56,188 nt of DNA, from the NCBI GenBank assembly GCA_964371565.1, contig CAYJND010000001.1, positions 1-56,188 on the forward strand, read 5' to 3'. Shown here piece by piece: positions 34,511 through 45,467 of this stretch. How positions within the stretch are numbered: the first letter of the stretch is position 1; every line of letters begins with the position of its first letter. A program made the position numbers and the translations under genes. The notes beneath the pieces are model-generated. The model saw only the letters and a program-made list of their open reading frames with translations. It was not told the origin of the DNA and searched no databases. This DNA comes from an uncultured Desulfovibrionaceae bacterium. Its GTDB lineage: Bacteria > Desulfobacterota > Desulfovibrionia > Desulfovibrionales > Desulfovibrionaceae.

Positions 34511-34696
34511 AACCTCTTTATGCGTATTGCCCCTATTTTATTGAAAAAGGGGCAATGCGTAGTACAGCACTTTACTTTTCTTAGCTTACGCCCCCTTGCC
34601 ACCATGGTGAAAAGGTTTTATATTGTAGCCATGTTGACAGTACACACTTTTTCTTCTTTCCATAAGCGGCATTTGCTTAAGGCAAAGGGTTATGTC

Positions 34697-35299
34697 ATGA
34701 CTTTTTGCGCTCTTTTGAGTCTAGGTATTATACATTTAGGCTTTACCCCCGCTCTACATGCCAAGACCCTTATGGACGCCCCTGAACTTTCAGAACTTTC
34801 AAGCGCCTCCTCAGCAGAGCAGCAGCGCGCTGCCGCCTTTGGCGTGTGGCAAAATCAAGAAAGTGTTTTACCGCGAAAAGAAGATAAAATTTGGCAACAA
34901 GGCACCTCCGCTGGTGAGCTTTTGCGCCAAAAAAACCCGCTACAAGCAAAGCCTACCCCTAACCCCACCCCCGACATGGGTCCGCAACAAGCCCCAGCCC
35001 CCACTGAGCCTGCCAAAGAAGGTATAACCTTAGCCGGCGGAGCTATTAAGGGCGACTCTGATGTAATAGGCAGCACTTGGCATGCCCCTGGCTCTCAAGA
35101 GCCTATTATTGACGAAGATATGATGCATAGACAGCACGACGTGGTGGGTGCTTATGGGCAAATGGCAAGCGGTGACGATTTTAAAATGACCATGGGCCCA
35201 GAGCTGTATATTCCCGGTGAGGGGGCAGACGTGCTTGGTAAAGACAGCTCTGAAGCATCTGAGCTTGGCATGAGCATGAAGTTTAAATGGGGCTTTTAG
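34697..35299 (+). CDS. Secreted low-complexity hypothetical protein
   Basis: About 200 aa from the ATG at 34697, with signal peptide MTFCALLSLGIIHLGFTPALHA. It has a Pro/Gln-rich centre and ends in MKFKWGF (aromatic terminus). The start is uncertain; the ORF opens at 34520. Confidence 0.45.
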   Translation: MTFCALLSLGIIHLGFTPALHAKTLMDAPELSELSSASSAEQQRAAAFGVWQNQESVLPRKEDKIWQQGTSAGELLRQKNPLQAKPTPNPTPDMGPQQAPAPTEPAKEGITLAGGAIKGDSDVIGSTWHAPGSQEPIIDEDMMHRQHDVVGAYGQMASGDDFKMTMGPELYIPGEGADVLGKDSSEASELGMSMKFKWGF

Positions 35300-35926: not shown

Positions 35927-36934
35927 ATGAAAACAAAATACTGTTTACGCTTTTTGGGTTTAAGCCTTGGCGCTAGCCTTATGCTCTATTTTGCGCTTAC
36001 CCTGCACTGGAAAGAATTCATTGCCCTTTTCACAGGTATACATTTACTTCCACTTCTAGCGGCGGCGGCGCTTTTTATTTTTGCAAGTTTTTTTCGTGCG
36101 CTGCGTTTAGAAATTATTCTACGCACGCAGTGCCATGCATCCCATAGCCTCGGCGCCCGCCTCAGGCACTGTTTACACGCCATTTATATTGGCAATTTTG
36201 GTAATTTTATTTTTCCTGCTCGTGCAGGTGAAGTGCTACGCATGTACCATGTGCATAAAAAATTACGCATACCTTTTATTGATACCATTACCCTATGCAT
36301 GGTAGATAGGCTTTTTGATGTATGGAGCCTTTTTCTCTTGGGCGGCGTGCTGGTATGCAGTGTATTTAGTCATATGCCTACCTTGTTTACAGCTTTTTTC
36401 TCGCTGCTTGGTATCACAGCTTTAAGCCTTGTGGCCTTGGGTATTGTTTTTATCTACCCTGTGCATATATACACGCTACTATGTGTTCTATTTAAGCCTC
36501 TCCCCCCATTTTTACAAAAAAAATTACGCCATTTTTGCAAATCTAGCCTCTTATCTTTACAAAGAATACGCTCGTTAAAAATACTCTTTCTTGCCCTTGG
36601 CTACTCTCTTTGCTCTTTTGTTATAAGCATATTCATGTGCCAAGAGCTTTTTTTCGTTTTTGGCTGGCAATTACCCCTTACCGCGGCCCTTATGATGAAG
36701 CTGTGTTTAAGCTTTGCAGGCAGTTTACCCTCTGCACCAGCATTTTTGGGCTTATACCAAGCTGCGGCGGTTTTTGCCTTAGCCCCTTTTCACCTTGGGC
36801 GCGAAGAAGGCGTAGCCTATGCCCTTATGCTGCAAATGCTCTCTTTTTGCCTCTATGCCCTTTTAGGGGGCGGCGGATTTTTAGCTTTAAGAAAAAAGCA
36901 AAGCCACTTACAAGCCCAAAAACAGAACACGTAA
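35927..36934 (+). CDS. Flippase-like membrane protein (lysyl-phosphatidylglycerol synthase TM-domain / UPF0104 family)
   Basis: 335 aa with about 8 TM helices. Family signature FRALRLEIIL ... IGNFGNFIFPARAGEVLRMY ... MVDRLFDV. Confidence 0.8.
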   Translation: MKTKYCLRFLGLSLGASLMLYFALTLHWKEFIALFTGIHLLPLLAAAALFIFASFFRALRLEIILRTQCHASHSLGARLRHCLHAIYIGNFGNFIFPARAGEVLRMYHVHKKLRIPFIDTITLCMVDRLFDVWSLFLLGGVLVCSVFSHMPTLFTAFFSLLGITALSLVALGIVFIYPVHIYTLLCVLFKPLPPFLQKKLRHFCKSSLLSLQRIRSLKILFLALGYSLCSFVISIFMCQELFFVFGWQLPLTAALMMKLCLSFAGSLPSAPAFLGLYQAAAVFALAPFHLGREEGVAYALMLQMLSFCLYALLGGGGFLALRKKQSHLQAQKQNT

Positions 36935-37123: not shown

Positions 37124-37169
37124 CCCCTTGGCTTCGAAAATCCGAAACCAAGGGGATTTTTTTATTTTT
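37124..37169. terminator. Strong hairpin with T-run between the flippase-like gene and the end of the minus-strand cassette
   Basis: CCCCTTGG(C)TTCG, loop AAAATC, CGAA(A)CCAAGGGG, then ATTTTTTTATTTTT on the + strand. It lies 18 nt downstream of the stop at 37173 of the minus-strand gene. Confidence 0.65.
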
Positions 37170-37172
37170 ATG

Positions 37173-38528
37173 CTACAGCACACTTTCTAGTGATAGGCAA
37201 AGTTTATCCACCAAAAAGTCAGCATTTTCTTTGGTGAAAATCAGCTGTGGGCGGAGTTTTAGGCTAGCGCCATAGGCACTGGTGGTTCCCACAAGAACGT
37301 GATTATCTTTCAATGTATTCACTATCTTTACCGTAAGTTCTGGCTGCACTTCCTTATGCGGCCCCACAATATCGATGCCATAGAAAAAGCCCTTGCTGCG
37401 AATTTCACCCACCATGGGATACGGCGCCACCTTGCTTTGCAATAGCTGATCAAAATAGGCACCAACCACATTGACATTTTCTATAAGACGTTCACTTTCT
37501 ATGAAATCAAGTACCGCTGTGGCGGCGGCTACAGCGCCGTGTGAGCTGGCAAAAGTATTAAAATAGCCCTGCCCCTTGTTAAGCTGTGCAAGGTATTCAG
37601 CATTGGTGGCAATGGCGGCTACAGGGTAGCCATTGCCCATGGGCTTACCCATGGTCACTATATCCGGTGTGATATTTTGACTCTCAAAACCCCACATGGT
37701 ACCCGTTCTGCCAAAGCCTGGTTGCACCTCATCGGCTATATACAGGCCTTTTTTCGCATGCAAATGCGCAATGCCGGCACACATAAAGCCCAGTGGTTCG
37801 CTATACACGCCATCACTAGAAAAAATAGTATCTGCCAAAAAAGCCGCGCAACCATAGCCCTCTTTTTCTAGGGCATCAATGGCTTGCTCCATGGCCTGTA
37901 AAAAGGCTTGTGCAGGATCATCCGAAGCGCAGATAGCCACCATATCAATGGGTTTTAGCCAAGGCTCTTTTTGATTGTGACGCATGGCAGAGGGCGAAAC
38001 CTTGGACACCAAATCTGTATTGCCATGATAAGCCAAGGCGCTCACAATAATGCCGTGCTTTTGCGTCACTTCGCGTGCGCAGCGAATGGCTAAATCGTTA
38101 CTCTCGCTACCCGTACAAGTCATCATGATCCTATCAATATTTGTAGGTAAAGTAGCAAGCAATCTTTCTGCATAATCATGTAAGCCCTGTGAAAGGTAGC
38201 GATTATGGCAATTAAGTTCCTGCCACTGCGAGGCAATGGCTTTACCCACTTGAGCATTGCTGTGCCCTATGGACTGCACATTATTATAGGCATCTAAATA
38301 GGCTTTACCCTCATAATCATACAGCCATACATCTTTACCCCGCACAAGCTCTAAGGGCTGCTTATAAAAAAGCACAGACATGGGGCCAATAAGGTTTTGC
38401 CTACGCTCTACTTCCTTTTTTAAACGCACATTAGATGTGGGAATAGATGCAGGATCATAGGAATTTTGCTCTAATATGGAAAAATTGGCCTCAGAAATAA
38501 CGGCACTTTCACTAGCATTACACAGCAT
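37173..38528 (-). CDS. Class III aminotransferase-fold enzyme of the ETNPPL/PHYKPL (AGXT2L) ammoniophospholyase type
   Basis: 451 aa. YNNVQSIGHSN, NRYL, YAERLLATLP, GSESNDLAIRCAR, ADEVQPGFGRTG and PDIVTMGKPMGNGYPVA (the hallmark MGKPMGNG PLP-Lys motif of the AGXT2L family), and LKLRPQLIFTKENADFLVDKL. Its start overlaps the upstream kinase stop by 11 nt. Confidence 0.75.
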   Translation of the reverse strand: MLCNASESAVISEANFSILEQNSYDPASIPTSNVRLKKEVERRQNLIGPMSVLFYKQPLELVRGKDVWLYDYEGKAYLDAYNNVQSIGHSNAQVGKAIASQWQELNCHNRYLSQGLHDYAERLLATLPTNIDRIMMTCTGSESNDLAIRCAREVTQKHGIIVSALAYHGNTDLVSKVSPSAMRHNQKEPWLKPIDMVAICASDDPAQAFLQAMEQAIDALEKEGYGCAAFLADTIFSSDGVYSEPLGFMCAGIAHLHAKKGLYIADEVQPGFGRTGTMWGFESQNITPDIVTMGKPMGNGYPVAAIATNAEYLAQLNKGQGYFNTFASSHGAVAAATAVLDFIESERLIENVNVVGAYFDQLLQSKVAPYPMVGEIRSKGFFYGIDIVGPHKEVQPELTVKIVNTLKDNHVLVGTTSAYGASLKLRPQLIFTKENADFLVDKLCLSLESVL

Positions 38529-39537
38529 CTCTATATACCTCTACAGAGTGATTATTAATATATTGTTGCGCCAAATACACGGTACCCTTGGCATAGCCAT
38601 CAATATGCTCTTCTGCCGTGGGGGTATCGTCATGGCTCGTAAGCCAAGCCACCAAAAGCACACGACGTAAAAAGATAAAGGTCTCCATTTCGTCATAGTC
38701 TTCTTGGCGTATGGGGGTTACAGAAGTGTACCCTTTTAGCCATGATGCTTGCAAAGCTGCAGCTTCTTTATGCAATTCATAAAAGGAAAGCGCCGCGGCA
38801 AAGTCATACATATACCAGCAAAAACCACTATCATCATAGTCAATAACAATAAGGTCATCGCCATCCATAAGCAGATTAGACAAACGTAAATCTGCATGAA
38901 TAAGGCCATAATTCTCGGGGGTATGATATTTTTCAAGCCTTTTTTTCACTATGTCCAAGGCATAAGAAATAGTTTGAATATCCTCTTGGCTTAGGTCTTT
39001 GCAGGTACGCCAATCCCCCCAATAACCGCTGGGGCTCACCATGGTTTCCACATTCCAATGCTTGCGCACAAAACCTTGTGGCGGTGTCCAAGTCTTGGCA
39101 TGTTTGTGCAACTCTGCCGTCACTTGGCCTAATTTTTCAAACCACGGTACCAAATTTTTACCAGCGCGCGGTTCAACACCTTGGCAATACTCAAATGCCA
39201 CCACTTGCAGCTCAATATCCGTAGAATTATAGATAAAATTAATGGGTACAAGGTTGGCGCCCGTGCAGGTTTCAAGCACCATGGGGCTTTTTACGGCGCA
39301 ACCACTGACCGCAATGGCCTTTACCCATTCAATCTCCGATTGCAACTCTTCTAAGCTATGATAAAAGGCTCTATTTACGCGAAAAATAACTATTTTACCA
39401 TCTTCATACACACCTTTGAATGTAGCATTTTCTGATACCGTAAGCAGGGAAAGTTCGTGTAATGGCTCCGTATGCCATAAGGGGGCAACTTCTAACAAGG
39501 CCTTGTGCATGCAATGGATAAATTTCTCTGTATACAT
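38518..39537 (-). CDS. APH-fold (aminoglycoside phosphotransferase / choline-ethanolamine / hydroxylysine kinase-like) small-molecule kinase
   Basis: 339 aa. Catalytic loop LIHADLRLSNLLMDGDD followed by VIDYDDSGFCWYMYDFA (Brenner / APH motifs). Confidence 0.75.
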   Translation of the reverse strand: MYTEKFIHCMHKALLEVAPLWHTEPLHELSLLTVSENATFKGVYEDGKIVIFRVNRAFYHSLEELQSEIEWVKAIAVSGCAVKSPMVLETCTGANLVPINFIYNSTDIELQVVAFEYCQGVEPRAGKNLVPWFEKLGQVTAELHKHAKTWTPPQGFVRKHWNVETMVSPSGYWGDWRTCKDLSQEDIQTISYALDIVKKRLEKYHTPENYGLIHADLRLSNLLMDGDDLIVIDYDDSGFCWYMYDFAAALSFYELHKEAAALQASWLKGYTSVTPIRQEDYDEMETFIFLRRVLLVAWLTSHDDTPTAEEHIDGYAKGTVYLAQQYINNHSVEVYRDAV

Positions 39538-39570
39538 GATAATCTCCTTATTTTTTTATTATGTGTTTGC

Positions 39571-40959
39571 TTAAGCTTCTTCGCTGGCTAAAAAGAGCAT
39601 GGCGAATTCTTCTTCGGCAGATTGAGCCACCACATGGCTACGGCTGTAGGCAAAGTAATATAAAACAGCGCAGAGGAAGAGAATTACTGTGGCGTAAAAA
39701 GCTTTAGTATCAAAGGCGTATACACCAACCATAGCAATGAGAGACAAGACAAGTGAAAGACCAGAAGTGAACACGCCGCCCGGAGTACGATAAGGGCGAG
39801 CCAGCTCTGGTTGCTTGAAACGCAATACTATATGACTCAATGACATGAGCGCGTAGGACGCAGTAGCAGCCACCACAGCCATGCCAATGATGAAATCCCC
39901 CTTACCGGTCAAAGAAACTATAAAGCCTAAAATGCCGGGTAAAATAAGAGCACGCGCGGGAATTTTCTTTTCATTGGTGACCGAAAGAAATTGTGGTAAA
40001 TAGCCTGCTCTTGAAAGGGCAAAGACCAAACGGCTGTAACCATACACCACAGAGAAAAACGAAGCCACAAGCCCAGCCAAAGACAGCACGTTAATGGCGG
40101 TAGCCAGCTCAGGGCTATTGCTATACTTCAGGGCATCCACCAAGGGTACAGCGCTTTTGCTTATCATATCTGCGCCCACGGCACCGGAAAGGAAAAACAT
40201 CACTAAAGCAGCGGTAATCATAAGAAACACCATGGCTGCAATAATACCTTTGGGCACATCTTTAGCAGGATTTTTAGCTTCTTCAGCGGCTAAGGGCACG
40301 CCCTCAATGGCTAAGAAAAGCCACATGGCAAAAGGAAGCGCCGCCCATACACCTTCAAGACCAAAAGGTAAAAACTCACTGGCAGCCGTGCCTTGCGTCG
40401 CAGCCATATCAAAGAGGTTTGCCCATTGGAAATCATCCACGAGCCCCACAGAAGTTATAACAATGGCAAGCACAGCCACAGCGCTGATGCACAGCATGAG
40501 CTTTAAGGCTTCGCCAACGCCTGTGAGATGAATGCCAATAATAAGCAGATAAAAAGCGCCGTATACCAGCGGCCCATCTATGCCAAACAAAGAATTAATG
40601 GCGGCGCCGATAAAAATAACAATGGCCGATGAAGCCAAAATATATTCAATAAGCACTGCAATTCCTGTGATATATCCACAAAATTGCCCAATGGCTTGAC
40701 GCGCAAAGCTATAGCCACCGCCAGCGGTGGGAATGGCAGCAGACATTTCTGCCAAAGAAAAAACCAAGCTAAAATACATAATAGCCATGGCTATGGCCGC
40801 CACAAGAAAGCCGCCCCATCCAGCTTGAGCTATGCCAAAATTCCAACCGGAAAAATTTCCGGATATAACATACGACACACCTAAACCGGCCAAAAGTATC
40901 CAACCGGCTTTGCCCCTTTGCAATTGCCTGTTGGCAAGGTACTCTTTGTAGTCAACCAT
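39571..40959 (-). CDS. APC-family amino-alcohol permease, ethanolamine permease (Eat)-like
   Basis: About 462 aa from the ATG at 40959, with AAGGAG 6 nt upstream. 12 TM helices. The N-terminal signature is LGVSYVISGNFSGWNFGIAQAGWGG...AEMSAAIPTAGGGYSFARQA. Confidence 0.75.
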   Translation of the reverse strand: MVDYKEYLANRQLQRGKAGWILLAGLGVSYVISGNFSGWNFGIAQAGWGGFLVAAIAMAIMYFSLVFSLAEMSAAIPTAGGGYSFARQAIGQFCGYITGIAVLIEYILASSAIVIFIGAAINSLFGIDGPLVYGAFYLLIIGIHLTGVGEALKLMLCISAVAVLAIVITSVGLVDDFQWANLFDMAATQGTAASEFLPFGLEGVWAALPFAMWLFLAIEGVPLAAEEAKNPAKDVPKGIIAAMVFLMITAALVMFFLSGAVGADMISKSAVPLVDALKYSNSPELATAINVLSLAGLVASFFSVVYGYSRLVFALSRAGYLPQFLSVTNEKKIPARALILPGILGFIVSLTGKGDFIIGMAVVAATASYALMSLSHIVLRFKQPELARPYRTPGGVFTSGLSLVLSLIAMVGVYAFDTKAFYATVILFLCAVLYYFAYSRSHVVAQSAEEEFAMLFLASEEA

Positions 40960-41020
40960 AATAAACTCCTTTGTTGAGAATGACACATAACCTAAAGCAA
41001 CATGCATACCAACACTGAGC

Positions 41021-41061
41021 CATTGAAAAATGTTTATATTTTCAATGTATTACAGTTTCAA
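41021..41061 (-). promoter_or_regulatory. Promoter candidate with an overlapping palindromic operator, for the permease-kinase-lyase operon
   Basis: On the minus strand: TTGAAA (41061-41056), 17 nt, TATAAA (41038-41033). A perfect 9-bp inverted repeat CATTGAAAA-N9-TTTTCAATG (41021-41047) covers the -10 and the spacer. Confidence 0.35.
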
Positions 41062-41452
41062 ACAAAGAGATAAATCTACATTTTTGTAAAAACTTCTTTT
41101 ATAAAAAGCCTTTTTTATTTGAAAATAATAATCAAAAATAAAACCTATTTCCCTGCATTTCAAAATAATTAGCGCACAAAAAAAGCCCTTTCCCCTACAG
41201 AAAAGAGCTTTCTACCACCAAGGCACTTTGATGTATTTCATACATTTTTTGTATAATTGCGTCTTTTTTGGGGTTTTTACCGCATTTATAAAAAATTTTG
41301 TCGTGAATTCCTAGAATGAACACCTTAACATAATACGTATTTTTATGGCATTTGCTTTTACATACTCTTCATAACATCATGTAATATAATGCCCTGATAC
41401 CATAGAATATTATATCTTCCTGCTCTGGGCATACAAGCTATCGCATAGGGAA

Positions 41453-41566
41453 TAAGATTTGAAAGCAAAGCCATTTACAAGCCCAAGAACAGAGTGCATA
41501 AACCTTTTCTTTTACCAAAAAAGAGCTTATACTTTTTTTCACTTACCCGAGGGAGGAAAGCATGCT
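41453..41566 (+). repeat. Direct repeat copy B (relic of the flippase-gene 3' end plus the functional leader/RBS/ATG of the next gene)
   Basis: 41463-41501 still reads KQSHLQAQEQSA-stop, in register with the real C-terminus KQSHLQAQKQNT-stop at 36896-36934. It contains an insertion of about 28 nt relative to copy A. Confidence 0.85.
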
Positions 41567-43424
41567 CGATTATTGCGCCATACTCAAAGCTGCCACCGTG
41601 CCCGAACATTCTGTGCACTTTATGCATGCCGTTTCAGGGGGAAAGCCCTTTATACAAGATGGCTATCTGTGCTTTAGCGCTGATGACTGGCTGACCATCA
41701 TCGGGTACCCTCTGCAGGATGCGCACCTAGGCGCCCCGCAGCACTGCCCTGATTTTTTTTCTGAAGTAGTGCATAAAGCCCTGCAAAAAACTGACGCCGC
41801 CCAGTGCTTTGTCATAACAGAGCGCATGCCCCAAGATTTGCAAACGCACATTCAAGAAAAGGATGTGTTTTACACCTTAGACGCGCATGCCCCCATCCCC
41901 CCAAAGCTACGGCGCCCCGTACAAAAAGCTAAAGAAAAACTACGTATAGACAGGGGAAACATTTTTACACCAGAGCATCGTCGACTGTGGACAGAATTTT
42001 TACATCGCGGCGCTAGAGAAGATACACAACCTATGCCCCCCATGTCCCCCATGGTAAAGAAATTATTTTTAGCCACACCCGCTGTACTGCAAGCCCCAAA
42101 CACAGAGCTTTGTTTGCTTAATGCCTGGAATACAGAGGGACATTTAACCGCAACCTTACTTATAGACACAGCACCTACACATTTTTGTTCCTATCTTTTA
42201 GGTGCGCATTCACGCAAACATTATGTACCCCATGCCGCTGACGCCCTGTTTGCCGAAATGCTTAGCCTAGCCCAAGAGCAAAATAAAAAATATATTCATT
42301 TAGGCCTTGGGGTGCATGAGGGCATTAGCCGCTTTAAGCGCAAATGGGGCGGCAAACCGAGCCTTGATTATGAAATGGCAACTTGGGACACTACGCAGAG
42401 TATAAGCACGCAAAGTAGCGTTAACTCAAGCTTTGGGCAAGACATGCGCGATCTTTTTAGCGCCCTTATTCTGCCCCCCGCTGAGCGTAAAGAAAAAACA
42501 AAAGATGCAGACCAAAAGTCGGAAGATATGAGCGCCTTTTTAGGCAAATCCAAACGTCAAATACTGGCTTCACTGCCCGAACAGCGCCCCCATGCCATGC
42601 TTTGGAAGGTACAAAAAGGCGATAAAATATCTTGGATTGGCGGTTCGGCACACTTTTTTTGTTATTCTTTTGAGCAATCTTTTCGTAAGCTCTTTGAGCA
42701 AGTAGACTCGGTACTTTTTGAAGGCCCCCTCGATGGCGAAGCCTTGCGCGTGGTTGAGGCTGCTGGCAAAACCCTTACCCCAGAGCAGCAGCCCTTATTA
42801 CCTTTATTGCAAGAAGAAGAAATTCGCCGCCTAGAGCGTGTGGTGCGCGGCCCAGAGGGAGCGCTGGCGCGTTTGCTTAATATGCACGCCAAAAAGCCCA
42901 CAGACGTGCGTTGGTATTTAGCCCATGCCCGCCCTTGGGCTGCCCTTTTTACCCTTTGGACGGGTTTTTTGGAGCGCAAAGGCTGGCAGCAATCGGTGGA
43001 TTTAGAGGCTTGGAATTTAGCCCATAATATGGGCAAGCAAGTGGTAGCCATGGAAAGCCTAGAAGAACAATTGGCCTCGCTCAATGCCGTGCAACCAGAG
43101 CGTGTGGTGCGCTATTTTCAAAATTGTCACCTTTGGAAAACTAAAATGCGTAAAAATGTGCAAGCCTACTTACGCGGTGACCTTTTGGGACAAATGGGAA
43201 CCAGTGCAGAGTTTCCCACGCGCACCCATACTATTATTAATGTTCGCGATGAGCGCTTTCGCCGGCGTATGCGCCCCTTTTTAGAGCAAGGGCGAGCTGC
43301 TGTTTTTGTGGGCACAGCGCATATGCTTAATTTACGCACCATGCTGGCAGAAGATGGCTTTAGCCTTACGCAAGCGCAACCCACCCTCAGCCATAAAATT
43401 CGCCATTGGTTTGCCCATGAATAG
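41562..43424 (+). CDS. Fusion protein: FemAB/MprF-C-like GNAT-fold transferase domain plus TraB/GumN (Tiki-like) domain
   Basis: 620 aa, with GGAGG 6 nt upstream of the ATG. The N-terminal part of about 290 aa ends in IHLGLGVHEGISRFKRKWGGKPSLDY (the FemAB-type G-x-x-x-FK-x-K-W/F-G motif). The C-terminal half has the two TraB/GumN GxxH motifs (WIGGSAHFF, VFVGTAHMLN) and LFEGPLD. Confidence 0.6.
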   Translation: MLDYCAILKAATVPEHSVHFMHAVSGGKPFIQDGYLCFSADDWLTIIGYPLQDAHLGAPQHCPDFFSEVVHKALQKTDAAQCFVITERMPQDLQTHIQEKDVFYTLDAHAPIPPKLRRPVQKAKEKLRIDRGNIFTPEHRRLWTEFLHRGAREDTQPMPPMSPMVKKLFLATPAVLQAPNTELCLLNAWNTEGHLTATLLIDTAPTHFCSYLLGAHSRKHYVPHAADALFAEMLSLAQEQNKKYIHLGLGVHEGISRFKRKWGGKPSLDYEMATWDTTQSISTQSSVNSSFGQDMRDLFSALILPPAERKEKTKDADQKSEDMSAFLGKSKRQILASLPEQRPHAMLWKVQKGDKISWIGGSAHFFCYSFEQSFRKLFEQVDSVLFEGPLDGEALRVVEAAGKTLTPEQQPLLPLLQEEEIRRLERVVRGPEGALARLLNMHAKKPTDVRWYLAHARPWAALFTLWTGFLERKGWQQSVDLEAWNLAHNMGKQVVAMESLEEQLASLNAVQPERVVRYFQNCHLWKTKMRKNVQAYLRGDLLGQMGTSAEFPTRTHTIINVRDERFRRRMRPFLEQGRAAVFVGTAHMLNLRTMLAEDGFSLTQAQPTLSHKIRHWFAHE

Positions 43425-44373
43425 CACTTCCACGCCCCTTGAACACATAAGCTTACAGGCCTATACCCCAGACCAAATCTTGCCCTATGTGCATGCTGTA
43501 AGCTCGGTAAAAACCACCCTTGAACAAGATTTTCTAGTGCACACACACGGCTCTCATGCCATAGTGGTGGGTTATGCCCTAGGTGCTGACCTAGCTACTT
43601 ATATGCAAGCTAACGAGCAATCTTCCCAACCCACCCAATTATACAATCATAAATTAGAAAAACTTTTGCAAAATCTCAACCAGCAAGAACACCTTGAGCG
43701 TATTACCCTTTTAGCCGCACAAAAATCCGCCCTTGTGCCAAGTAACGCCCTTTGTCAGCAAGATGCCTATTACTTTTTAGCCTTACCCCTTGTCAAAGCT
43801 CAAGCCCGCAACGCTTTTTCCATGTGCCGGCGCGCTTTACCCCATATACAACTCACTCAAGATACAGGAAAAGAAGCTTGGACGGGCGCGCATCAAGAGC
43901 TTATGCTTAGCTATTTACAACGCCAAGATGTAAGCAAAGAAATGGGAAGTATTTTTCAGCGCTTAGATGCCTATTGCCGCCTATCGCCGCATGTTGTTCT
44001 TTTTTCTGCCTATGATACACACACAGGGGCGCTCATGGGCATGACCTTGGGGGATTTTAGCTCTCTACATACAGCTTTTTATATGTTTGCTTTTCGCCAC
44101 CCCCATGCTGAACCCGGCGTTAGTGAAGCGCTTTTAGGCGCCTTGGTGCAAGAGGCCGAAGCCCGCGGTTATGCTTGGTGCAATTTAGGATTAGGCATAC
44201 ATGATGGCATACGCTTTTTTAAAGAAAAATGGGGCGCACGACCACTCTTGTCCATGGTAGAATGTAGCTGGGATTTACAAGCACAAACGCCCGAGCACAA
44301 GCACGGGCACAAGCACGGACACATACAGGCAAGCGATACAAAAAAATCGTGGTGGCAAAAACTTTGGGAATAA
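43417..44373 (+). CDS. Stand-alone paralogue of the FemAB-like domain, with a His/Lys-rich Trp-containing tail
   Basis: 318 aa. Its ATG overlaps the upstream stop (ATGAATAG). It aligns with the upstream protein at HAVS, VVGYAL / IIGYPL and CNLGLGIHDGIRFFKEKWGARP. The tail is EHKHGHKHGHIQASDTKKSWWQKLWE. Confidence 0.6.
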   Translation: MNSTSTPLEHISLQAYTPDQILPYVHAVSSVKTTLEQDFLVHTHGSHAIVVGYALGADLATYMQANEQSSQPTQLYNHKLEKLLQNLNQQEHLERITLLAAQKSALVPSNALCQQDAYYFLALPLVKAQARNAFSMCRRALPHIQLTQDTGKEAWTGAHQELMLSYLQRQDVSKEMGSIFQRLDAYCRLSPHVVLFSAYDTHTGALMGMTLGDFSSLHTAFYMFAFRHPHAEPGVSEALLGALVQEAEARGYAWCNLGLGIHDGIRFFKEKWGARPLLSMVECSWDLQAQTPEHKHGHKHGHIQASDTKKSWWQKLWE

Positions 44374-44378
44374 AAAGC

Positions 44379-45467
44379 ATGAATACAGACTTTCCTCTCA
44401 AGCTAGCTCAAACGCAAGGCGTAGATGTGTTTAAGCACAAAGCCTTTCAAGAGGCCGGCGTATGGCAACTTATTAAAGAATTGGTGCGCCCCGCACAACG
44501 CCCCTTTGACTGTCTTCAAGTGGAGATCACCTCACACTGCGCCGCCCGTTGCAGCTATTGCCCCCACACTACCCATGGAGAACATTGGCAAGGACAACAT
44601 ATGCAAGCGACTACCTTTGCAAATCTGTGGCCTCTTTTGCTGCAAAGCGCGCGCGTGCATTTACAAGGATGGGGCGAGCCCCTCTTGCATCCCCACTTTT
44701 TTGATTTTGTGGCCTTTGCCCGCAAAGCTGGCTGCCAAGTGTCTACCACCTCTTGCGGTTTACACCTAAGCGAGGCGCAAGTTTTGCGTATTTTAGACAG
44801 CGGCATAGATATATTTGCCTTTTCTCTAGCAGGCACTGATGCTGATACTAATAGCGCTCGCCAAGGGGCAGATTTTCATAAAGTCTGTGAAAAAATAGAG
44901 CTTTTGCAAAGCTTGCGCAAAAAGCATTGGGCTGTGCACCTAGATGTGCATGTGGCGTATATTCTTTTAGCTGATCGCATGGAAGCCGTGCTTGCTTTAC
45001 CTAAGCTTATGCAAAAGCTTCAGCTAAGCACCGCCATTGTGAGCACTTTAGATTATGTGCCAGAGCCTCATTTGCAAGCACTGGCGCTGCGCCCCGAAGA
45101 AGACATAAAAATTGCCCGCGCCAAAAAACTCTTACAAGAGGCTAGCGCTCATGCAAAAAGTCTTGGTATGGATATACATTATGCGTTGCCAAGCGTAAAC
45201 ACCAAGGGAACCTGCCGCGAAAATATCCAAAAAAGTTTATATATTAACGCCGCCGGTTTTTGTTCGCCTTGCGTATATCTAAATATACCTTCTTTACAAG
45301 AAGGCAGTCGTAAAGCAGGGGCTCTCTTTGGCAATGTGAATGAGCAACACCCCTTAAATATTTGGCAAAGCACAGATTTTACCCATTTTCGTCAAAGCCA
45401 TGCGGCCAATACGCCTACACATGCTCTTTGCCATAGCTGTATTAAGCGCCACGAAGATAGCTGTTAG
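44379..45467 (+). CDS. Radical SAM enzyme with a SPASM/twitch-like C-terminal Cys domain
   Basis: CAARCSYC (CX3CX2C), GWGEPLL (the GGE-type SAM motif), and C-terminal CX13GX4C (CRENIQKSLYINAAGFCSPC) plus CX2CX7C (CHSCIKRHEDSC). A GTG at 44349 is an alternative start. Confidence 0.75.
   Translation: MNTDFPLKLAQTQGVDVFKHKAFQEAGVWQLIKELVRPAQRPFDCLQVEITSHCAARCSYCPHTTHGEHWQGQHMQATTFANLWPLLLQSARVHLQGWGEPLLHPHFFDFVAFARKAGCQVSTTSCGLHLSEAQVLRILDSGIDIFAFSLAGTDADTNSARQGADFHKVCEKIELLQSLRKKHWAVHLDVHVAYILLADRMEAVLALPKLMQKLQLSTAIVSTLDYVPEPHLQALALRPEEDIKIARAKKLLQEASAHAKSLGMDIHYALPSVNTKGTCRENIQKSLYINAAGFCSPCVYLNIPSLQEGSRKAGALFGNVNEQHPLNIWQSTDFTHFRQSHAANTPTHALCHSCIKRHEDSC

Follow-up and report, generated by a model that had tools for sequence, protein, structure and literature searches.

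A 56,188-nt stretch of DNA from an uncultured Desulfovibrionaceae bacterium (contig CAYJND010000001.1), referred to here at its full length as the window and used for all positions, carries one copy of a conserved three-gene module on its + strand. The module consists of a gene that fuses a predicted FemX/MprF-C-type tandem-GNAT unit to a TraB/PrgY/GumN domain (gene 1), a gene for a stand-alone paralogue of that unit (gene 2), and a gene for a radical SAM enzyme with a SPASM/twitch-type C-terminal Fe-S domain (gene 3). We give an even chance to the reading that these genes are a self-contained, soluble set of three enzymes, conserved in the Desulfobacterota, in which the GNAT units would transfer an aminoacyl group from tRNA to an acceptor encoded elsewhere, the radical SAM enzyme would tailor the product and the TraB domain would act as a hydrolase.

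Gene 1 (41562-43424, 620 aa) begins with an ATG at 41562, preceded by a GGGAGG ribosome-binding (Shine-Dalgarno) site 7 nt upstream, and ends with a TAG at 43422-43424. The tandem-GNAT fold predicted from the structural models occupies residues ~1-283 (41562-42410), with an invariant C-terminal LGLGV..GI..FK.KW motif, and the TraB_PrgY_gumN domain, which is TIKI-like, occupies residues 346-604 (42597-43373). Gene 2 (43417-44373, 318 aa) starts with an ATG at 43417, overlapping gene 1 by 8 nt, and stops with a TAA at 44371-44373; after a gap of 5 nt follows gene 3 (44379-45467, 362 aa), with an ATG at 44379. An earlier note, made from the letters of the window, had described three tightly packed + strand genes with this overlap and a very short second gap, and the open reading frames (ORFs) and junctions read as it said. 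In each of the three proteins, the Kyte-Doolittle mean is at most 1.25 in every 19-residue window, so that no transmembrane segment is predicted. A promoter and terminator scan gave no signal above shuffled expectation, an Rfam search of the 35-47 kb region gave no match, and the PADLOC defence-system models gave none for gene 1, gene 2 or a flippase-like protein encoded upstream; for gene 3, PADLOC returned a generic radical SAM similarity to pVip only.

The three genes are conserved as a unit. The scan covered one genome per species, and loci were analysed for the best 80, with tblastn of the window proteins used for adjacency. Relatives are encoded in at least 275 species genomes, and the best 80 loci come from Desulfovibrionaceae, Syntrophobacteraceae, Desulfobacteraceae and Desulfatitalea. 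Among the Desulfovibrionaceae, the carriers include Bilophila wadsworthia ATCC 49260, Mailhella and many Desulfovibrio, along with numerous uncultured metagenome-assembled genomes (MAGs). Gene 2 directly follows gene 1 in 71 of 74 loci (69 found by script, plus L007 and L008, where the genes overlap), and the radical SAM gene directly follows gene 2 in 57 of 63. Since this order recurs in dozens of genomes with unrelated flanks, it is far beyond chance, and the trio is a real conserved module, the conserved unit being three genes and sometimes two. The same partners are also joined by natural fusions. Mailhella and others encode GNAT-TraB-GNAT proteins of ~880-910 aa (P0082, P0241, P0244), and gene 2-type GNAT units are fused to radical SAM/SPASM enzymes in proteins of 615-633 aa (P0245, P0255), with a further GNAT::radical SAM fusion in P0264. 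One of the GNAT::radical SAM fusions lies directly 3' of a gene 1 homologue. Large metagenomic clusters of these proteins exist as well, for example one of 1,706 sequences that represents the Bilophila wadsworthia type, under generic names only.

Some loci depart from the usual layout in their details. Gene 1 stands without an adjacent gene 2 or radical SAM gene in a MAG labelled 'Bacillota bacterium' (MAG053; locus L064, 9932-11695), near gatA/gatB and recD2, and in two further loci (L060, L061); the Bacillota label may reflect a binning error, or else a transfer. In two other loci, from Bilophila wadsworthia ATCC 49260 and one uncultured Desulfovibrio, 360-850 nt separate the TraB and gene 2 matches (L051, 11719-12081; L055, 6351-7200).

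The paralogy of genes 1 and 2, which the earlier note had read from several shared motifs, was confirmed. The gene 1 N-terminus and gene 2 are 22% identical over 285 aa by BLASTP (E = 3e-14), and the two family profiles align by hhalign with a probability of 100% (E = 5e-39, 267 columns). The latter comparison used a trimmed alignment; without trimming, gene 2 had paired with the C-terminal region of the 890-aa fusions instead. All of the quoted motifs are present, namely HAVS in both proteins, IIGYPL in gene 1 and VVGYAL in gene 2, and LGLGVHEGISRFKRKWGGKP in gene 1 and LGLGIHDGIRFFKEKWGARP in gene 2. The LGLG..GI..F-K-x-K-W core is invariant in both families.

PF09924 (LPG_synthase_C, DUF2156; the MprF C-domain) is matched by 25 of 45 gene 2 relatives at E<=0.01, PF13480 (Acetyltransf_6) is matched by 23 of 40 gene 1 family members, and two relatives pass the 27.5-bit cut-off of PF09924 (P0266 with 38.8 bits and P0262 with 27.6 bits). 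None of the 45 + 40 family members matches PF02388 (FemAB) at E<=0.01, which places them outside FemABX by sequence, and no NCBIfam model matches gene 1 or gene 2 at E<=0.1. Searched against PDB sequences, the gene 2 profile found matches at E = 0.14-0.7 only, among them L-PGS 4v36 at E = 0.2; at that E-value the aligned stretch is nevertheless sensible, pairing APPGvADaLL with APKGIMDALF. Run exhaustively over 1.84 billion representative proteins, a HMMER profile search returned only 456 relatives at E<=0.001, and by these profile comparisons the GNAT units appear to be a small, sequence-isolated branch of the FemX/MprF-type fold. There are more than 500 gene 1 homologues, annotated only as TraB/GumN or GNAT family, and the public source names for genes 1 and 2 are limited to 'hypothetical', 'TraB/GumN family' and 'GNAT family N-acetyltransferase'. 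The earlier note had called the composition of the cluster uncharacterised, and as far as databases can tell, with their generic names and the lack of NCBIfam matches for genes 1 and 2, this is so. Five gene 2 homologues (P0166, P0174, P0199, P0202, P0224) carry the public name 'translation initiation factor IF-2', for which we found no Pfam support and which appears to be a propagated mis-annotation.

To place the units by structure, AlphaFold models were built on 40-45 homologues and compared with the PDB by Foldseek. The models have mean confidence (pLDDT, predicted local distance difference test) values of 88.3 for the gene 1 N-terminus and 90.8 for gene 2, and each contains two GNAT subdomains. 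For both units the first-ranked match is FemX of Weissella viridescens. The best matches of the gene 1 unit are FemX 1xe4/7z6a, L-PGS 4v36 and MprF 7duw (E ~1e-10, TM-scores 0.5-0.59), and those of gene 2 are FemX 1ne9 (E = 3.6e-11), DUF2156 2hqy, A-PGS 4v35 and MprF. After FemX come the MprF synthase domains (L-PGS 4v36, A-PGS 4v34/35 and full-length MprF 7duw and 9goe) and the DUF2156 proteins 5vrv and 2hqy, with Sbb17/Sba18, which are aminoacyl-tRNA-dependent peptide synthases, lower in the ranking; taken together, matches of the FemX/MprF/DUF2156/Sbb17 type span E ~4e-11 to 1e-8. All matches stronger than E ~3e-9 (ranks 1-16 for gene 1 and 1-13 for gene 2) are FemX, L-PGS, A-PGS, full-length MprF or DUF2156, and all top-rank matches with a known function are aminoacyl-tRNA-dependent. 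Tandem GNATs that use acyl-CoA (4ius, the clavulanate tandem GNAT, VipF, NMT) do not enter the ranking before ranks 14-21 (E ~3e-9 to 1e-8), below which they are mixed with more MprF/DUF2156 chains. Judged from the models, with two GNAT subdomains in ~300 aa and the nearest structures all within that group, both units are predicted to have the FemX/MprF-C-type tandem-GNAT fold, as the earlier note had suspected; its other domain calls (TraB/GumN and radical SAM/SPASM) were equally right by Pfam.

The C-terminal domain of gene 1 matches TraB_PrgY_gumN (PF01963) over profile positions 1-263 of 263 (E = 4.2e-34, 119 bits against a cut-off of 26.8). Both GxxH motifs, GSAH and GTAH, which the earlier note had also pointed out, are nearly invariant in 40 gene 1 family sequences. 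No match to this domain was found among PDB sequences. Gene 3 passes the cut-offs of both Radical_SAM (PF04055; E = 1.6e-12, 48.4 bits against 29.5) and SPASM (PF13186; E = 1e-9, 39 bits against 21.5), with weak BtrN and PqqE matches only among PDB sequences. Its nearest NCBIfam models are TIGR04317 (120.1 bits) and TIGR04311 (120 bits), both at E ~1e-34 and both far below the cut-offs of 380 and 400, so that gene 3 belongs to neither family.

The cysteine pattern proposed for gene 3 needed the sole correction to what the earlier note had observed. Among 64 orthologues, CX3CX2C (C54/C58/C61) and the C-terminal C279, C298, C351 and C354 are 100% conserved; the last cysteine of the proposed CX2CX7C motif, C362, is kept in only 9%, and C295 in 8%. 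Three core cysteines outside the known motifs, C45, C119 and C126, are 94-97% conserved. The full SPASM reference pattern has seven cysteines (CX9-15GX4C...CX2CX5CX3C...C) that serve two auxiliary clusters, whereas only the four named above are conserved in the C-terminal domain of gene 3. From this pattern, gene 3 may hold one or two auxiliary clusters, and the ligation of these Fe-S clusters may be atypical for SPASM.

No acceptor gene is encoded in the cluster. The 129 genes that directly flank the modules represent 124 Pfam families, of which even the commonest, DnaJ, occurs only four times (LPG_synthase_TM three times), and the neighbourhood differs by lineage, with polA, PPK2, proline dehydrogenase, GatAB, Mla genes and others. 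All-against-all clustering of the ORFs in the 80 loci recovered the module itself and antisense artefacts only, and no fourth conserved gene. ORFs of 18-90 aa beside all modules showed no conservation beyond five closely related loci, and the small ORFs at 41010-41570 in the window showed none beyond close relatives. In Desulfovibrio sp. SGI.169 (L001), the module is wedged between polA, which ends 25 nt 5' of gene 1, and an opposite-strand gene that begins 16 nt 3' of the radical SAM gene, which leaves no room for a precursor gene. A gene cluster for a ribosomally synthesised and post-translationally modified peptide, considered as a candidate, was rejected on these grounds: no small ORF conserved beyond the five close loci, no room in L001 and no conserved neighbour. 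A link to MlaE lipid transport, considered since such genes lie near the module in L001 and L066, was dropped as well, as they do not recur among the immediate neighbours in the Pfam census. Just 3' of the radical SAM gene, four related MAGs (L021, 12246-12509; L022; L024; L031) have an 87-aa cysteine-rich ORF with CVECD...YPTPERKW, which is not conserved with the module elsewhere.

How might such a module work? The gene 1 N-terminus and gene 2, as FemX/MprF-C-type units, would move an aminoacyl group from charged tRNA to an acceptor encoded outside the cluster. With two paralogues, aminoacyl groups could be added in two successive steps, or one subunit could be catalytic while the other holds the substrate. 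The acceptor or the added residue would be tailored by the SPASM-type radical SAM enzyme, and the TIKI/TraB-type domain on gene 1 would hydrolyse an ester or amide bond, so that the product is trimmed, released or recycled. All three proteins would probably act together in a physical complex. The active-site motifs are intact in the TraB domain (both GxxH) as well as in gene 3 (radical SAM and auxiliary-cluster cysteines), which is in line with this scheme. Support for aminoacyl-tRNA as the donor is indirect, coming from the fold ranking of the models and the conserved F-K-x-K-W motif. The acceptor would be a soluble peptide, protein or small molecule and not a membrane lipid.

Several observations weigh against this scheme. 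The gene 1 N-terminus has no Pfam match in the window copy, and gene 2 stays under the cut-offs of both PF09924 (17.9 bits, E = 0.0018, against a gathering threshold of 27.5 bits) and PF13480 (18.5 bits, E = 0.0024). By these profile scores the gene 2 family borders PF09924, yet the window proteins do not qualify as members, and PF13480 is in any case not confined to tRNA-dependent enzymes. The HMMER relatives stop short of the large MprF and FemX families, so that homology to tRNA-dependent enzymes rests mainly on the fold and on weak profile matches. The TM-scores are moderate (0.5-0.6), and the acyl-CoA-dependent tandem GNATs, which set in at rank 14 for gene 2 and 17 for gene 1, are ~1.5-2 logs weaker than the best match, which makes tRNA less certain as the donor. 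In addition, the radical SAM gene is not adjacent in six loci and gene 1 is alone in three, so the trio is not obligatory everywhere.

Two other activities for the GNAT units deserve comparison with tRNA-dependent transfer. One is that they are ordinary acyltransferases dependent on acyl-CoA, or otherwise independent of tRNA, with the module N- or O-acylating a metabolite or protein and TraB serving as the matching deacylase; we think this improbable, though it is the most serious of the alternatives, and the finding would matter less if it were so. The public name 'GNAT family N-acetyltransferase' fits it, PF13480 matches are as frequent as PF09924 matches, and 4ius, the clavulanate tandem GNAT, VipF and NMT are among the fold matches at E ~3e-9 to 1e-7. 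However, every match stronger than E ~3e-9 is a FemX, MprF or DUF2156 chain, some relatives pass the PF09924 cut-off, and a G..FK.KW motif near the C-terminus, as conserved here, characterises the FemABX/DUF2156 lineage. The other activity is branching of peptidoglycan precursors, in which the paralogues would add residues to UDP-MurNAc-peptide or lipid II in the manner of FemX, FemA and FemB. In its favour, FemX of Weissella viridescens heads the fold ranking for both units and, like the proteins of the trio, is soluble, and the two paralogues echo FemA/FemB. We nevertheless consider this very unlikely, given the lack of any PF02388 match in the 85 family members, the lack of a recurrent mur or division gene among the neighbours, and the radical SAM and TraB partners, which have no counterpart in peptidoglycan branching. 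Moreover, we know of no branched stem peptides in these Gram-negative bacteria.

A third alternative, put forward by the earlier note, is a disassembled MprF, a four-gene module in which a membrane lipid or a precursor of the envelope would receive an aminoacyl group from the GNAT proteins, undergo tailoring by the hydrolase and radical SAM enzyme, and be translocated by a flippase-like protein of the UPF0104 family. The gene for the latter (35927-36934, + strand; LPG_synthase_TM, Pfam E = 1.1e-34) is a former upstream neighbour of gene 1 in this clade only. The note's claim that it once lay directly 5' of gene 1 proved correct from a direct repeat in the window and from three relatives (L008, L009, L010), which still have the order flippase-like gene, gene 1, gene 2, radical SAM gene, GGDEF gene on the opposite strand and cyclase, without the 4.5 kb that intervene here. 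This ancestral adjacency favours the four-gene version, as do the fold and weak profile similarity to the MprF C-domain, and aminoacyl-lipid synthases paired with hydrolases are a known theme. The larger claim fared less well. In MprF the synthase is fused to, or constantly paired with, LPG_synthase_TM, but the proteins of genes 1-3 have no predicted transmembrane segment, and the flippase-like gene adjoins the module in just 3 of the 69 loci with room for it. The flippase-like protein has 11 homologues at E<=1e-10, and its orthologues stand in other contexts. For example, the MAG with the closest gene 1 homologue has a 78%-identical orthologue on a different contig, where genes for an MFS transporter and a LapA-like adhesin flank it, and more distant ones lie in a sugar-biosynthesis cluster or after rpsB-tsf. 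The adjacency was broken twice within the clade, by an insertion here and by a rearrangement in that closest MAG. A stem-loop and T-run downstream of the flippase-like gene also count against this model, and with ~40 independent neighbourhoods sampled, one chance adjacency of this kind is not very improbable. Given the 3 of 69 loci and the other contexts, a disassembled MprF is unsupported and we regard it as unlikely; beyond the fold resemblance to MprF-C, nothing that we found points to a membrane-lipid acceptor.

Soluble, tRNA-dependent aminoacyl transfer, the reading that we favour, can also be set against systems that are already known. With MprF and the other aminoacyl-phosphatidylglycerol synthases (PF09924; 4v34-36, 5vrv, 7duw), the trio shares the tandem-GNAT fold, a weak but recurrent profile similarity, an APxGxxDaLF region and the C-terminal F-K-x-K-(F/W) motif. 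Unlike them, it is soluble, has no fused or steadily adjacent flippase or transmembrane domain, scores below the PF09924 cut-off, and has its GNAT units fused to a TraB hydrolase or a radical SAM enzyme instead. For both units the closest structure is that of FemX from Weissella viridescens (E ~4e-11 to 1e-10, TM-scores 0.55-0.59), which is soluble too, and paralogue pairs are common in the FemABX family; the trio differs in having no PF02388 sequence match, no peptidoglycan gene context and other partners. The stand-alone natural-product transferases Sbb17/Sba18 (PDB 9wqx/9wqy) are soluble, FemX/DUF2156-like, act on small-molecule acceptors and are among the fold matches. VlmA, PacB, DhpH and BlsK are further stand-alone aminoacyl-tRNA-dependent transferases of natural-product pathways, some of which later remove the aminoacyl group again. 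These transferases are encoded in biosynthetic gene clusters, whereas the trio stands alone among varying housekeeping genes in hundreds of genomes.

The partner domains likewise depart from their nearest relatives. Gene 1 shares with the TIKI/TraB/PrgY/GumN proteins (PF01963) a full-length domain match and both GxxH motifs. The known members Tiki and PrgY are secreted or membrane-anchored, whereas the gene 1 domain is predicted to be cytoplasmic and is fused to a tandem GNAT. The TIGR04317 (W_rSAM_matur) and TIGR04311 (rSAM_Geo_metal) maturases are the nearest curated relatives of gene 3 over its full length, but gene 3 reaches 120 bits where 380-400 are required, has other gene partners, and keeps only four C-terminal cysteines besides three core cysteines. 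Overall, the trio is most like the stand-alone tRNA-dependent FemX/DUF2156 transferases in its working, and it is not a member of MprF, FemABX, TIGR04317 or any other curated family tested. As far as databases show, the combination of domains and the fusions to TraB and radical SAM enzymes are undescribed; a prior description in the literature is possible.

The DNA upstream of the module records how the flippase-like gene came to be separated from it. One copy of the direct repeat lies within the 3' end of that gene (36895-36926, + strand), outside the module, and the other at 41462-41493, 70 nt 5' of gene 1; the two are identical at 30 of 32 nt, and the repeat extends to ~60 nt. The second copy is part of a segment (41462-41561, + strand) that aligns with the junction of the flippase-like gene and gene 1 in L008, and which is a relic of the 3' end of the flippase-like gene together with the original spacer. 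Between the copies lies a three-gene cassette on the - strand (37173-41007), absent from the closest relatives L007-L010. It encodes an ethanolamine permease (TIGR00908, 469 bits, above the cut-off), an APH/choline-kinase-like kinase (Pfam APH and Choline_kinase) and a class-III aminotransferase-like enzyme (Aminotran_3, with a PRK06148-like protein as best match). From these matches, the cassette looks like a microcompartment-independent route from ethanolamine through phosphoethanolamine to acetaldehyde, and this ethanolamine-utilisation cassette was inserted later between the flippase-like gene and gene 1, with a duplication of ~45-60 bp. The aminotransferase-like protein resembles the C-terminal half of PRK06148 kinase-aminotransferase fusions.

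Some further features surround the flippase-like gene. The stem-loop mentioned above, CCCCTTGG ... CCAAGGGG followed by a T-run, is at 37124-37163, between the convergent flippase-like and aminotransferase genes, and by its sequence is a terminator-like candidate for the former; the consensus terminator scan missed it because its loop is 16 nt long. A 259-aa ORF at 34520-35299, with a hydrophobic N-terminus, a Pro/Ala/Gln-rich middle and no significant Pfam family, is separated from the flippase-like gene by an AT-rich spacer of 600 nt. Elsewhere, a 42%-identical orthologue of the flippase-like protein is encoded within a sugar-modification cluster (L089, 2913-13002), together with a UDP-GlcNAc 2-epimerase, an asparagine-synthase-like gene, a methyltransferase and a DegT aminotransferase. 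This context hints that the usual job of the family is the handling of glycans or lipid-linked sugars.

Through enzymes of the FemX/MprF type, charged tRNA that would otherwise serve translation is used in the chemistry of cell walls, lipids and antibiotics, and every acceptor newly discovered has brought new biology to light. Here, units with this predicted fold are tied by gene order and by natural fusions to a radical SAM enzyme and to a hydrolase that resembles TIKI. Among sulfate and sulfite reducers the module is conserved in at least 275 species, and these include abundant human gut organisms such as the gut pathobiont Bilophila wadsworthia, Desulfovibrio fairfieldensis-like strains and Mailhella. 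A bolder proposal, which we offer tentatively and with more doubt than confidence, is that the trio is an unrecognised tRNA-dependent pathway to 'aminoacylate, radical-tailor, hydrolyse', specific to the sulfate-/sulfite-reducing Desulfobacterota, Bilophila wadsworthia included, and devoted to an amino-acid-derived metabolite or cofactor or to a post-translational modification. We know of no bacterial TIKI/TraB member with a defined reaction, and the trio, if this proposal is true, would provide the first, along with the first radical SAM enzyme physically coupled to a FemX/MprF-type transferase. The module is compact, is present in cultivable strains and lends itself to clear in vitro assays, and would thus be a tractable entry to a possibly new tRNA-dependent pathway.

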